Positions 17,351-31,751 of a stretch of 64,000 nt of DNA are shown here, in pieces. A program made the translations under genes and the position numbers. Numbering within the stretch: position 1 is the first letter of the stretch; each line of letters opens with the position of its first letter. Under the pieces are notes generated by a model. The model ran no database searches, was not told the DNA's origin, and saw only the letters and a list, made by a program, of their open reading frames with translations. This DNA comes from a virus. The stretch lies in UHGV virus genome UHGV-0236300; one strand, 5' to 3'.

Positions 17351-17773
17351 CGGTGCCTGCCGTCCTTTCGATAGGTATATTGTGCCACCTGGCGGGGCCG
17401 CTGTCAACACTTTTCAAAAAAATTCTAACCTGATGCGCTAACCGTTGCAACCTGGCGGGGCCAGCCTGGCAGGGCTATGCTATAGGGTAGGCAACAACTG
17501 AAGAGGAGGTACAAAAATAAAAGGTAATATGATCCCTGGAAATGTAGCGATTAATGACGCTGAGGCTATCGCCCTGGTTGAAAAGGCTATGGCGGGAGCG
17601 TTGGAACATAAAGAAGAGTACGAAAAAATGATGGTTAACCTGGCAGGGGCGGCGGCTGGAGAATTCTGCCCAAAAAATAATTCTAACTAATGGTTGACAG
17701 CTCGGATAGTTCTGTTATTCTTATCCTCGCAAGGTGAACAACACCACACTAATTAACAGAGAGGATAAAAATC

Positions 17774-22652: not shown

Positions 22653-23263
22653 TGTCTGCTCTTCTCCTACCATAAACGGCCCTACCTGGCAAGTGGAATA
22701 ATTGACTAGCCATCAATCCCACATACTGTACAAATATACATGGAAAATAACTATTGCATAATCTTTCATTGTGTGGTAGCAGGGCCATTTTTACCCGTTT
22801 TCTCTCCCAAAAGTGCACGTAATGCCGCTATTGCACAAATTTTAACCTGATGCACATCTCCAATATCTTGTCAACAACTAAAAATCTTTATAAGTCATAC
22901 ACTTACACAGCATCGAAAGCGTGTTCTACGCGAAAAATCGAGTATAACTATAGCCGCCAGATCTCAGAATTCACGTACGCACGCCATTCTATAGTCTGCA
23001 AAGTATTTATTCCAACCACAGAATAACGGAATAGTCAATACCTGCATAAAATAATTATTCGTGTAAACTGCATAACATAAATCAGCTCAGGTGTCAACAT
23101 TTTTCGTAAACAGTTCGAAATTGTCACGATAAGTTATTATACACAGAGAAATCTTTAGTCGTCTAATGTTTACTGTACATTACTATACTGACTGGAATCA
23201 TTAGATGACTAAGAGAAAGATAAGAAATAATTAATAATGTAATTGTTTTACCTGTAACAATAA

Positions 23264-23440
23264 GGCAACTATGCAAACGAATGGCATGGCGCGACGGAGT
23301 CGCGACATAATATAAAAGCAGTAACAATCACCCCCGTGATAGTTTTTCTGCAATCTATTATTCAGATCATAGTTGCCTTGTATTTAGTTAATCATGACAT
23401 AACAAGCAAGGCAACTATAGATCTTCTAATAGTTGCCCTG
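23264..23440. repeat. CATAGTTGCC direct and inverted repeats
   Basis: Motif at 23264 (rev), 23368 (fwd), 23410 (rev), 23429 (fwd); 23368-23420 is a 13-bp-arm imperfect palindrome. Confidence 0.5.
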
Positions 23441-23529
23441 CTTTTATATTATGTCATAGATTGTTATCTTGTTAATTGTTTTCATGCAAACGAATGTCAT
23501 GGCTTATCATCTCTGTGTAAACAATTTGG

Positions 23530-23585
23530 GCGTAAACTATTCAGATGAAAACTATTCAGGCGTAAACAGTCTATGCGTAAACAGT
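23530..23585. repeat. CGTAAAC(AG) motif cluster
   Basis: GCGTAAAC at 23530, 23560, 23575; also 23897 and 23105; the same core occurs in the early 5'UTR 22-mer. Confidence 0.5.
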
Positions 23586-23610
23586 GAGATATGGAATAGT
23601 AACAGCCGTT

Positions 23611-23682
23611 ATTGTGTCATATTGTGTCATTGTGTCAAAGGTAAAAGTGTCAAAAGTGACAATTTTGTCACATTGTGTCAGA
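23611..23682. repeat. TGTGTCA / TGACA iteron-like repeats
   Basis: ATTGTGTCAT x2, TGTGTCAAA, GTGTCAAAAGTGACAA, TTGTCACATTGTGTCAGAC. Confidence 0.5.
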
Positions 23683-24204
23683 CAAGTTTTTCTCCTCTTT
23701 GTCAAGTGCCGCATGAAAAATTTACAAACTGGTATGGTAGCATTTTTGCGGCCCTGTTTACATTCAGGAATGTATGTATAATCCTTGCTGTGTGGGCGTT
23801 TAGACGTCTGGACGGTCAGAAGTCAGCAGGTCAATATCTAATCTATTGGTTGCTAACTATATCCCACACAAATAGTAAGAAATATAATTGTTATGTGCGT
23901 AAACAGTAACTCATGTTATCAATCCCTGTATGTATCGCCAGTGGTGCGCATAATGGGTATTATGTTAAATTGCCCGTAATGATAACCATTCTCACAATGA
24001 TAGGTATTCTCATTCATCCCCACAAGATAGATTGCAAATGTTGTGCCACTGTGTGAACGGCCTCACCTATTAATTTGCCTCACTGCCTCGATATTTGAGA
24101 ATTATTATAAAAAATGAGAAGTATTCCCATTCCGTCCGCCTGGCAGCACTCCTGTAGGACAAGCACAACATCGGGGTATAACTGGACCTGTTCAGATATT
24201 TCTG

Positions 24205-24345
24205 GCTGACTCTTCAGGCCTGTGTGGGAAAAGCCAACCTCTCCGGCGGCGGGGAGGGGGGTCAATTAAAAAATTTACGTGGTGTATGAAGCGCTCTTCA
24301 GGCAAGGTGTGTATTATGGGATGAAACCCTCTTCAGGTGATGATA
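24205..24345. repeat. CTCTTCAGG repeats and G-rich repeats
   Basis: CTCTTCAGG at about 24211, 24296, 24330 (and 24739); CCGGCGGGGA(G/T)GGGG at 24244 and 24388. Confidence 0.4.
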
Positions 24346-25113
24346 TTTGTGGGGGGATATTTGCTGGAAAGCCAGATATGACGGGGCTCCCGGCGGGGAT
24401 GGGGTAGTACAGACAGGGAAAATGTGGGGATGTGGTGGGAGTAAATTGATCAAGTAGGTAGGATATGGAATATGTTACAAGTATGTTAAATATAGAGGTA
24501 GGATATTTGTGAGATTTGTGTGTAAAATCAAAGACTTAGGTGGTGTTGTGGTATTTTCTATAAATAATTCAAGTTTAATAGGTGATATTTGTCTCCATCC
24601 ACTTTGTGTGGTAAACAGCTCCTAATTGAATTGGTTTACAAGTGTATATAAAGTATACAAATTAAAGATATAAGAAACCCCCCTCCCCCTTCGGCTACCA
24701 TTCACCTTTTCCTCTGACTGGTACTTAAACACTTATTCAGACTCTTCAGGTTATCACCCCTATACTATATGGCAGTGACTGGTGTCCTCCGGCCCCTCTT
24801 TCGCCACCCGTCCGCTTCGCCATGCTAATGCCATAGCCAAAGGTTCGGTTGTTCACCCTGTTCACTCAGGTGTATCTCCATACCCCTTCAAACCGAAGAG
24901 AACAGAAAACCCGAATTACTCGGTAAAAGAAAAGAGAAGAACTTAATTTTATCAAGATAGGCAAGAATGTCAAGGGATGACTGCTCACTAAACAAGCAAA
25001 CAGTCATGTGTGGTAGGTAAGTAACTGGGTTGGTAGGAAATTTAGTTGGAAGATGTTATAGGTGCCTCCAGAACCTTAGCTGGGCAGCTAAACCTGCAAA
25101 GCAGACTTGTGTG

Positions 25114-29149: not shown

Positions 29150-29545
29150 TTACTGAAACAGTGCAGATAAATTACCTTCTGGTGGGAACTTATCTGCCAG
29201 GAATGGGGTTAGAACAGTGGCCTTCTGAAGATCTGGGGTCCACTCGTTGTTCAGAACATCCCAGTAATACGCAATGTTGCTATGTGGGTGCCGCATTACG
29301 AACTTTTTCCCTTCGTAGTCAGTTGAAACCTCTACAGAAGAAATAACAACAGAATCTTCAAGGGTTTCTTCATAGAAAGATCCACCCTCAAATTTCCAAC
29401 GAGATGCAAGAGCTCCTGCCTTGAACGCTGCAGATAACGGACTGTCTGCAAGAACATACATTTCTTGCACTCTGTCACTGCGATCTTTGCTTCTTACGTT
29501 GTATACAGTATCCGAGCTATACTCAACACGGTATAGACTTACCAT
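29150..29545 (-). CDS. hypothetical protein, paralog of 31353-31751
   Basis: RBS GAGGAGG; shared HP.S...YW.....WTP motif. Confidence 0.5.
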   Translation of the reverse strand: MVSLYRVEYSSDTVYNVRSKDRSDRVQEMYVLADSPLSAAFKAGALASRWKFEGGSFYEETLEDSVVISSVEVSTDYEGKKFVMRHPHSNIAYYWDVLNNEWTPDLQKATVLTPFLADKFPPEGNLSALFQ

Positions 29546-30237: not shown

Positions 30238-30507
30238 TTACTCTTCTACAACCTCATACACATCCGGAGTTACAATCAACTCTTCTCCGTTACCTGGTGC
30301 AACAAACACTACCAAACCTTCCGGTGTGTGCTTTTTAGCCATCTCGATGACATCTTCTCGCAGAGCTGGCTCCATCAGATCAAAACCTTCACCCAGAGCA
30401 TCACGAACCACCTTCATGTAGTCAACTGGTTGTGCTTCAACGATCATGCCTTCAACCAGTCCACAGTTTTTGTCTGCCAGCTCAGTTTGGAATAATTTAA
30501 TTTTCAT
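30238..30507 (-). CDS. hypothetical small acidic protein (family member)
   Basis: RBS GAGGAGA; C-terminus YEVVEE. Confidence 0.5.
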   Translation of the reverse strand: MKIKLFQTELADKNCGLVEGMIVEAQPVDYMKVVRDALGEGFDLMEPALREDVIEMAKKHTPEGLVVFVAPGNGEELIVTPDVYEVVEE

Positions 30508-30533: not shown

Positions 30534-30635
30534 TTAATAGCCGTAACCTAACACATTAACTACAACTGCGATTGCAAACATAATTTCAAAGCATGCAATC
30601 TCTACATTTGGGACTAATTTCTTAATCATGCCCAT
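30534..30635 (-). CDS. small hydrophobic peptide (33 aa)
   Basis: RBS GAGGTG then ATG; MGMIKKLVPNVEIACFEIMFAIAVVVNVLGYGY. Confidence 0.3.
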   Translation of the reverse strand: MGMIKKLVPNVEIACFEIMFAIAVVVNVLGYGY

Positions 30636-30650
30636 TGTAGCACCTCAATC

Positions 30651-30962
30651 TCAAAAGTCAATCTTTACTTTACCTTTTCCCTTACCTTTCTTTCCACCGC
30701 ATTTAGCCAACTGGCGTGCTGCAACATCCACCATACGGTCAGTTGCCTCGTAAGCATCGCTACCTTTAGCTTTGGCGATAACTTCTTTCCCAGAATTGTC
30801 AAAAATGAAAGCCATAACTTCCTGGTGATCATTTTCAACTTTTACACTCACACGTGCATAGTTGGCAGAGGGGTGCAAACGCTCCAGCTTGGACATTTTG
30901 TGGGAAATGAAAGACACCATACCTTCAGTGATCTCTACGTTGCCAGTGATTTCAATCTGCAT
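30651..30962 (-). CDS. hpf: ribosome hibernation-promoting factor homolog (HPF/RaiA, S30AE family)
   Basis: MQIEITGNVEITEG...KLE...VKVE...GKEVIAKAKGSDAYEATDRMVDVAARQLAK matches E. coli HPF along its length (recalled from memory); RBS AAAGGAGC. Confidence 0.75.
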   Translation of the reverse strand: MQIEITGNVEITEGMVSFISHKMSKLERLHPSANYARVSVKVENDHQEVMAFIFDNSGKEVIAKAKGSDAYEATDRMVDVAARQLAKCGGKKGKGKGKVKIDF

Positions 30963-31009
30963 AACGTGCTCCTTTTAAAGAAGAGGGAACCAAACCCTCT
31001 TTGAAAATA

Positions 31010-31038
31010 ATGATACTAAAGATCAAATGTTGTGTCAA
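31010..31038 (-). promoter_or_regulatory. sigma70-like promoter upstream of hpf
   Basis: Minus-strand TTGACA, 17-nt spacer, TATCAT; hairpin AGAGGG/CCCTCT in the 5'UTR. Confidence 0.45.
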
Positions 31039-31352: not shown

Positions 31353-31751
31353 TCAGCTTATCTTTTCTTCAACAACCCCGTAGCTCGGGGCAGAGTCAAG
31401 AGCTTTCTGGTTTAAAAGTGGTGTAGCAGAATCTGCAAACGGTGTCCAGGTTTTTGTTCTGGCATTCCAGTAATGCTTTACTCTGGAATCTGGATGCACT
31501 ATAACAAAAACTTTTTCACTTGTCAACACATTAATTTCTTCTACACCCTTGCTGATAATCTCTCCGTCATAGCCACCAGTCTGGTATCCTTCGTACCAGG
31601 TTCTTGCATAGGCATAGCCAGCCTGCCAGCATGCAGCCTCCTCCGAGGTGGAGACTACGTAGAAGTCTTTCTCAAATTCGGGGATACGCCCTTGCTTTAC
31701 GCTCCAAGCTCCGCGAATTTTCATTGTAACTTTGAACAGTTTATTTTTCAC
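31353..31751 (-). CDS. hypothetical protein, paralog of 29150-29545
   Basis: GTG start after GGGGAA; HPDSRVKHYWNARTKTWTP motif. Confidence 0.5.
   Translation of the reverse strand: MKNKLFKVTMKIRGAWSVKQGRIPEFEKDFYVVSTSEEAACWQAGYAYARTWYEGYQTGGYDGEIISKGVEEINVLTSEKVFVIVHPDSRVKHYWNARTKTWTPFADSATPLLNQKALDSAPSYGVVEEKIS

Follow-up and report, generated by a model that had tools for sequence, protein, structure and literature searches.

Introduction

Phage genes whose products touch the ribosome directly are rare, and those of the hibernation promoting factor (HPF) type are without a demonstrated role. The closest described system to the one analyzed here is ORF 144 of the coliphage rV5, a gene located in a long run of 88 mostly small ORFs (Kropinski et al. 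2013), which the rV5 record DQ832317 annotates along with a sigma-70 promoter, P144, before it. The product (ABI79209) is on the list of virus-encoded ribosomal proteins drawn up by Mizuno et al. (Nat Commun 2019, PMC6375957), who found it to group with the HPFs of gammaproteobacteria. When they expressed it in E. coli, the protein could be detected in the crude extract by mass spectrometry, while its peptides were not found in the 70S/100S fractions after a high-salt wash, and 100S levels showed no discernible change. The authors left three causes open, namely the growth phase, a true loss of binding, and the stringency of the salt wash, and speculated that competition between the viral HPF and that of the cell might prevent dimers from forming. 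A later coliphage survey merely cites this work, and our search of the literature after 2019 found no functional study, transcriptome or knockout for this gene.

The surface that cellular factors of this family use to hold the ribosome is well described. Lysines and arginines of helix 1 overlap the phosphate backbones of the tRNAs (Lys53, Arg56 and Arg59 in M. smegmatis; PMC6133939), Arg33 and Lys93 contact the E-site tRNA while His95 stacks on G693 (Beckert et al., bioRxiv 382572), and positions 80, 83, 87, 89, 91 and 93 of helix 2 form a positive surface, with further contacts provided by Tyr30, Thr53, the His55/Glu60 pair and Asp75 (bioRxiv 10.1101/2025.10.07.680626). We report here on a gene of this family in a virus genome. 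Because rV5 ORF 144 is annotated in GenBank and its product was tested once, by Mizuno et al. in 2019, the gene was already known and its finding is a rediscovery; with annotations in more than 100 genomes, it is not news. What is modestly new is the picture at the level of single residues, namely an eroded ribosome-contact surface and a C-terminal motif that has been exchanged, both in a gene under tight purifying selection.

Results

The gene and its records

The window, by which we mean the entire 64,000-nucleotide stretch of virus genome UHGV-0236300 that was analyzed, belongs to an rV5-like Vequintavirus, as the approximately 3 kb around the HPF gene are 98% identical to Escherichia phage ECP26 and 92–97% identical to about 120 rV5-like myoviruses of this genus. 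The coding sequence, taken from the list of open reading frames, occupies positions 30651..30962 on the minus strand, where 103 codons beginning with ATG are followed by a TGA stop. A Shine-Dalgarno sequence read directly from the DNA, AAGGAG (30969..30974, minus strand), lies 6 nt 5' of the ATG and reads AAGGAA in rV5 and ECP26. The gene is the ortholog of rV5 ORF 144 (ABI79209), and in tblastn searches the protein was 100% identical (103/103 residues) to the rV5 product, with the same 103/103 identity found in more than 60 further records; the gene is intact in approximately 118 rV5-like genomes. The allele in the window is two codons shorter than that of rV5 due to a GGA to TGA change, and hence ends in IDF instead of IDFGE, while relatives carry IDF, IDFGE, IDFLD or IDFE as their last residues. 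The C-terminal sequence of the 103-aa product (...GGKKGKGKGKVKIDF) is the one read in an earlier note made on this DNA from its letters alone.

Database records name this gene in several ways, including "sigma 54 modulation factor", "ribosome hibernation promoting factor", "RaiA" and "hypothetical protein", and some mislabel it as "ATP-dependent protease La type I". The RefSeq name "RaiA" found on some records is a generic label. Among the records retrieved, eighteen "Campylobacter phage" genomes (MG0656xx, host given as C. jejuni) are 95–100% identical to rV5-like coliphages in the HPF region, and are probably mislabelled or contaminant sequences.

Promoter and leader

The earlier note had proposed that the gene has its own promoter, and our analysis agrees. 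A sigma-70-type promoter (TTGACA-17-TATCAT; 31010..31038, minus strand) matches the consensus at 11 of 12 positions, coincides with the P144 annotated in DQ832317, and has both hexamers conserved in relatives. Its -35 hexamer together with the AAACTG immediately upstream is, in fact, invariant in all the aligned relatives, including one with only 64% identity. This extended -35 motif, AACTGTTGACA (AA[C/N]TGTTGACA), was found eight times in the window with one mismatch allowed, versus 2.0 occurrences expected, and none of 100 shuffled sequences reached eight copies. The sites, at 17402, 18436, 23092, 31033, 38664, 38938, 62027 and 63168, are mostly on the minus strand. Such recurrence is probably a signature of the promoters that this phage offers to the host polymerase, which would make P144 one member of a set, in agreement with the 33 sigma-70-like promoters reported for rV5 by Kropinski et al. 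(2013).

The hairpin that the same note had placed in the 5' untranslated region fared less well. A 7-bp stem-loop (AAGAGGG / CCCUCUU; 30981..31001, minus strand; -9.9 kcal/mol) does exist in the predicted leader and its stem is unchanged in rV5 and ECP26, but its folding energy is indistinguishable from that of shuffled sequence (z=-0.7), and the stem is altered or extended in relatives L006 and L007 and missing in L003, the relative with 64% identity. The terminator scan did not call this hairpin and an Rfam scan of the window returned no family; a regulatory role for it is not supported.

Family membership and fold

That the product belongs to the HPF/YfiA family is firm, both by profile and by fold, and the strong homology claimed for it in the first reading of the sequence was confirmed. 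The Ribosomal_S30AE profile of Pfam (PF02482) matched residues 3–88 with an E-value of 1.7e-12 and 48.4 bits, where the gathering score is 23.7, and the family model TIGR00741 of NCBIfam scored 46 bits against a cut-off of 40.9. The domain part of the protein corresponds to positions 30699..30962 on the minus strand. In a phmmer search of PDB sequences the top matches were structures containing E. coli HPF (2rql, 4v8h and 6h4n; E ~5e-12), with residues 1–89 of the phage protein aligned to residues 1–89 of the E. coli one; alignment to E. coli HPF thus holds over the domain and not, as had been stated, over the whole length, given that the last 14 residues, the tail, fall outside it. In a four-way alignment, for which the PDB served to verify the sequence of YfiA, the phage protein had 42% identity with E. 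coli HPF and 23% with YfiA.

The AlphaFold2 model, obtained from an alignment of 95 sequences, has a mean pLDDT of 86 and consists of strands at residues 2–7, 33–43, 46–55 and 60–67, and helices at residues 13–29 and 70–92. When this model was searched with Foldseek, the first 36 matches were all hibernation factors (36/36). Superposition on solved HPFs (4hei, 2rql and 6h4n) gave TM scores of 0.8–0.93 and rmsd values of 1.1–1.9 A overall, with 0.83/0.93 and 1.1 A for V. cholerae HPF (4hei), and an rmsd of 1.3 A for E. coli HPF within the 100S ribosome (6h4n). The dimerisation domain of long HPFs (PF16321), which long forms among the homologs we collected do carry, had no Pfam match in the phage protein, which is single-domain.

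Equivalence to either of the E. coli factors, on the other hand, is not supported by these data. The NCBIfam equivalog model for E. coli-type HPF (PRK10470) scored 55.9 bits, below its cut-off of 125, and the one for RaiA (PRK10324) scored 17.7 bits, below its cut-off of 158. We also considered whether the protein could be a member of the Acb4 family (PF13876), a possibility that was rejected, as there was no PF13876 match at E<=1, and Foldseek aligned the model to Acb4 (9e4w) with TM scores of only 0.39–0.50 and an E-value of about 0.02.

Ribosome-contact residues

To put these differences in context, the phage protein was compared to an alignment of 91 cellular family members, built from exhaustive and profile searches (a word-indexed protein search gave 6 matches), for which it should be kept in mind that the gathering profile leans towards HPF-type sequences. 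Within this frame, the phage protein retains K22, K25 and R28 in helix 1, E60, D75, R83, K87 and K91, as well as the invariant Y71. Three positions that are nearly always basic in the family have, instead, been replaced: position 16 is V (92% K/R in the family), position 80 is V (95% K/R), and position 89 is G (99% K/R). Further replacements are L for Y/H30, S for R33, F for T53, F for H55, and G for K93. Of sixteen contact-type positions, the phage protein keeps eight (8/16) and the protein of its nearest uncultured relatives, the P0004 cluster described below, six (6/16), compared to 9–16, and mostly 12–15, in the 91 cellular homologs. Near-invariant basic positions are kept at 5 of 8, versus 6–8 in the same homologs. 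Each of these (91/91) has K/R at two or all three of positions 16, 80 and 89, and the phage clade has it at none.

Both phage clades have a number of changes in common (V16, L29, F54, A70/T74, and K64/K66 for acidic residues), the last of which places two lysines in beta-strand 4 where the family is mostly acidic. The net charge of the core, at -2, is within the family range (mean -3), and charge has been redistributed, not lost.

The C-terminal tail

At the end of helix 2, where the family has a near-universal K-H-K-x-K, the phage protein reads K-C-G-G-K-K-G-K..., and the His95 of HPF is absent. The Gly/Lys-rich segment that replaces the KHKxK... helix end (residues 89–103, GGKKGKGKGKVKIDF; 30654..30698, minus strand) has a net charge of +5, and is predicted to be disordered, with pLDDT below 50 for residues 91–103. 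It had been described as an added tail, a reading that can be retained in part: it does run 8 residues beyond the end of E. coli HPF and has an odd composition, with 5 glycines among its first 12 residues compared to 0–2 in the 91 homologs, but its length is typical of the family, where the median number of residues after position 88 is 14 (15 in the phage protein). Judged by sequence, the tail is thus unusual by composition and not by length. It is conserved across rV5-like orthologs, with variation confined to the last 0–2 residues.

Selection and origin

Among five rV5-like orthologs, dN/dS ranged between 0.02 and 0.07 with dS up to 0.7, the tail included; pairwise comparisons gave 14–30 synonymous versus 0–6.5 non-synonymous differences (29.5 versus 6.5 in one example). 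The GC content of the gene is 43.6%, compared to 42.9% for the phage background. An HMMER scan of 1.84 billion protein representatives returned a single close cluster, P0004, with 65% identity, which sits on 125–137 kb contigs of uncultured rV5-like phages at the same syntenic position; the next matches in this set were only cellular HPFs, with at most 45% identity and E-values of 2e-7 or weaker. A search of IMG/VR gave two loci. These sequence comparisons indicate that the gene is old, fully domesticated and under strong purifying selection. Because of its phage-like GC and low identity to any cellular HPF, an old acquisition is the better account of its origin, and the recent capture from a host suggested by Mizuno et al. 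was rejected, as the GC content equals that of the phage background, the protein shares only 42% identity with E. coli HPF, and none of the cellular proteins among the 1.84 billion representatives is above 45%. The phage factor would then have derived long ago from a gammaproteobacterial hpf.

Genomic neighborhood

Directly 3' of the HPF gene is a conserved 33-aa hydrophobic mini-ORF (30534..30635, minus strand; MGMIKKLVPNVEIACFEIMFAIAVVVNVLGYGY), which corresponds to rV5 ORF 145. A promoter-like sequence (TTGACT-16-TACAAT with an extended -10 TG; 30661..30634) overlaps both the end of the HPF ORF and the start codon of the mini-ORF; in L003 the mini-ORF is absent, and a promoter-like sequence is found there instead. 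The adjoining 89-aa gene (30238..30507, minus strand), considered as a possible second "sigma 54 modulation factor", was rejected as such, for it has no similarity to HPF and no Pfam match. This erroneous label is spreading, as it is found on the 89-aa gene in ECP26 and in several other GenBank records.

Two paralogous proteins of 131/132 aa (31353..31751 and 29150..29545, both minus strand) flank the HPF gene; they share 28% identity (BLASTP E=2e-9) and the motif HP.S...YW...WTP, and have no Pfam match. One of them is rV5 ORF 142, annotated as similar to a protein of Listeria phage A118. The segment 28462..30507 (minus strand) encodes a series of small proteins that are very acidic and end in Glu-rich stretches (among them ...LLEAGTEEEEE, ...YEVVEE and ...YEVVDEEVL); those scanned within it had no Pfam match, and they might act as mimics of nucleic acids or in host takeover. 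With regard to an anti-defence context for the HPF homolog, ten neighboring small proteins had no Pfam match, and PADLOC returned nothing for the homolog itself, which speaks neither for nor against such a context.

Farther away, positions 22800–24800 of the window comprise approximately 2 kb without a long ORF and with clustered short repeats, among them 22-mers that contain CGTAAAC at 23516, 23546 and 23561, as well as at 23105 and 23576, and an inverted repeat of exactly matching 18-nt arms (23304–23321 / 23438–23455). By offset, this segment corresponds to rV5 positions 104013–106618, for which Kropinski et al. (2013) reported no observable ORFs; neither a tRNA nor an Rfam match was found in it, and it may represent an iteron-containing origin of replication or a region of non-coding RNA.

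Discussion

The question raised by our results is why a virulent coliphage tightly keeps the fold of a hibernation factor minus several of the residues that hold it to the 16S rRNA. The reading that we favor, with a probability that we would put at roughly 0.45, is that the phage HPF is an altered factor that sits in the 30S decoding channel and binds there weakly. According to this scenario, host RNA polymerase would transcribe the gene from its near-consensus sigma-70 promoter, presumably early during infection, as suggested by the promoter type and by the layout of the locus, a long array of small and presumably early genes. The protein would then occupy the decoding channel of vacant ribosomes through the residues retained in helix 1 and helix 2 and through its flexible polycationic tail. 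Because three contact lysines and the KHKxK...His95 end have been lost, with a polycationic tail in their place, binding is probably weaker than that of the cellular factor and salt-labile, and would take place on monomeric 70S or 30S particles, as in the case of YfiA, rather than promote 100S formation; the absence of KHKxK and His95, along with the unchanged 100S levels seen by Mizuno et al., argue against a role in dimer formation. The net effect might be that idle ribosomes are reversibly parked and shielded during takeover, and not locked in hibernation of the host type.

In favor of a weak occupant are the retained helix-1 triad (K22/K25/R28), R83/K87/K91 of helix alpha2, D75 and E60, as well as the strong selection, the fold, the conserved promoter, and retention of the gene in approximately 118 genomes and in the sister clade. 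Against it are the results of Mizuno et al., who did not find rV5 HPF in 70S/100S fractions in spite of its presence in the extract, and the erosion of the contact surface (8/16 positions, with K/R16, K80 and K89 lost). Weak, salt-labile binding would, however, reconcile strong selection with a negative result from a salt-washed preparation. The earlier note had suggested that a phage HPF could silence or protect host ribosomes during infection, which was offered there as inference; this remains its status and, if anything, such a role would appear weaker than was assumed, as the residue replacements point in the same direction as the negative published ribosome result, that is, against the simplest form of this idea.

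Sequence tools cannot separate the functional alternatives for this protein. The broader of these holds that rV5-type HPF has been retooled by the phage and is perhaps no longer a hibernation factor, acting instead as an anti-hibernation or anti-dormancy decoy, or as a binder of some other RNA, nucleotide or protein, which we regard as unlikely in both its forms. In the first, the phage protein would occupy the site of HPF/YfiA, or cover the RMF site with its cationic tail, keeping host RMF and HPF from forming tight 100S particles and leaving ribosomes free to be recruited by phage mRNAs when cells are starved or arrested by defence. The same hypothesis was put forward by Mizuno et al. (PMC6375957), and an HPF fold without the locking residues K80, K89, K93 and His95 is what such a competitor might look like. 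Its tail is, moreover, as long as the ordered part of the YfiA tail, a part which in YfiA runs towards the RMF site (bioRxiv 10.1101/2025.10.07.680626), and at least one defence response, DRT2, is accompanied by a rise in host RMF (reviewed in PMC13434031). Expression in E. coli, however, left the small 100S fraction unchanged (PMC6375957), and a 15-residue tail is normal for the short HPFs of our family set (median 14). Competition alone, in addition, does not restore translation, because any protein in the A/P-site channel still keeps tRNA and mRNA out.

In its second form, to which we give similarly low credence, the fold has acquired a new function off the ribosome, where its ligand could be a different RNA, a small nucleotide or a protein of the host. 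Such a change would fit with the only experiment available, in which ribosome association was not found (PMC6375957), with a contact surface that has eroded while selection stays strong, and with clade-specific changes that are conserved in both phage clades. The gene also lies among dozens of small uncharacterised genes, which is the usual location of anti-defence functions, and Acb4, whose resemblance to HPF is published (PMC11722364), shows that phages can retool a fold of this kind. The phage HPF is not an Acb4, however, given TM scores of 0.4–0.5 to 9e4w compared to 0.8–0.9 to HPFs; furthermore, no tool indicates another ligand, PADLOC finds nothing, and half of the contact positions, including the basic triad of helix 1, are kept.

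A canonical HPF, which together with host RMF would turn 70S ribosomes into 100S particles and shut off host translation, appears improbable. The best sequence and structure matches of the phage protein are indeed the short HPFs of E. coli and V. cholerae, and the HPF equivalog model outscores the RaiA one (55.9 vs 17.7 bits), but 55.9 bits is far below the equivalog cut-off of 125, KHKxK, K93 and His95 are missing, and 100S particles were not raised upon expression (PMC6375957). An early and general block of translation would, in addition, be expected to hit phage mRNAs as well. Lastly, the possibility that the gene was captured from a host and is now decaying, or is a chance ORF that has no function, for which only the negative ribosome-binding result (PMC6375957) could be invoked, is refuted by the selection data (dN/dS 0.02–0.07), and equally disfavored by an ORF intact in approximately 118 genomes, a phage-like GC, a confident fold and stable expression, and can be dismissed.

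Phages for a direct test of these readings are already available, rV5-like ones from the BASEL collection among them. The answer would tell whether a phage protects, parks or un-parks the ribosomes of its host and, more generally, whether phage and host contend over ribosome hibernation during infection.

Comparison with known systems

With rV5 gp144, the product of ORF 144, the identity of the system is complete, as the protein, the promoter, the neighboring genes and the type of genome are the same, and only the extreme C-terminus varies among isolates. The short HPFs of E. coli and V. cholerae (YhbH; 2rql, 6h4n and 4hei) have the same fold, with 42% identity in the case of E. coli. K23, K26, Y71, D75, R83, K87 and K91 are retained in the phage protein, whereas R17, Y30, R33, T53, H55, K80, K89, K93 and H95 are replaced. 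The phage HPF also differs from them in that it ends in a disordered Gly/Lys tail and not in the end of helix 2, and its gene differs from cellular hpf in having a sigma-70 promoter and in lying outside the rpoN operon. YfiA (RaiA, or protein Y; 1n3g and 4v8i) shares the fold as well, and like the phage protein it is without K89, and its tail exceeds that of E. coli HPF in length; by analogy, the mode that we propose, monomeric 70S binding without 100S formation, would be YfiA-like. The two differ in that YfiA, lacking only K89, keeps R17 and K80, while the phage HPF is without all three, and in that the YfiA tail ends in acidic residues (EEVEEE), whereas that of the phage HPF is polycationic.

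Among phage proteins, the Acb4 anti-CBASS sponge (SPO1 gp1.3, 9e4w) is likewise small and has a related alpha/beta fold of the RNA-binding type, and its structural resemblance to V. cholerae HPF (4hei) has been published (PMC11722364). Few other cultivated phages carry proteins with the S30AE fold. Those that do include the jumbo phages GAP32 of Cronobacter (K4F6Q6), PBECO4 of Escherichia (L7TII8) and XaC1 of Xanthomonas, the last with a homolog that is detectable by tblastn, and all of these are phage-encoded HPF folds. In structural alignments, the GAP32 and PBECO4 proteins are 19–23% identical to the phage HPF. The jumbo-phage proteins belong to PHROG 8990, which the phage HPF matches at E=1.4e-6, and rV5-type HPF forms its own group, phrog_12469, labelled "unknown function". 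Because the GAP32 protein stands apart from the gammaproteobacterial clade (Mizuno et al., PMC6375957), separate acquisitions by phages are suggested, with the HPFs of rV5-type and jumbo phages having been obtained independently of each other.
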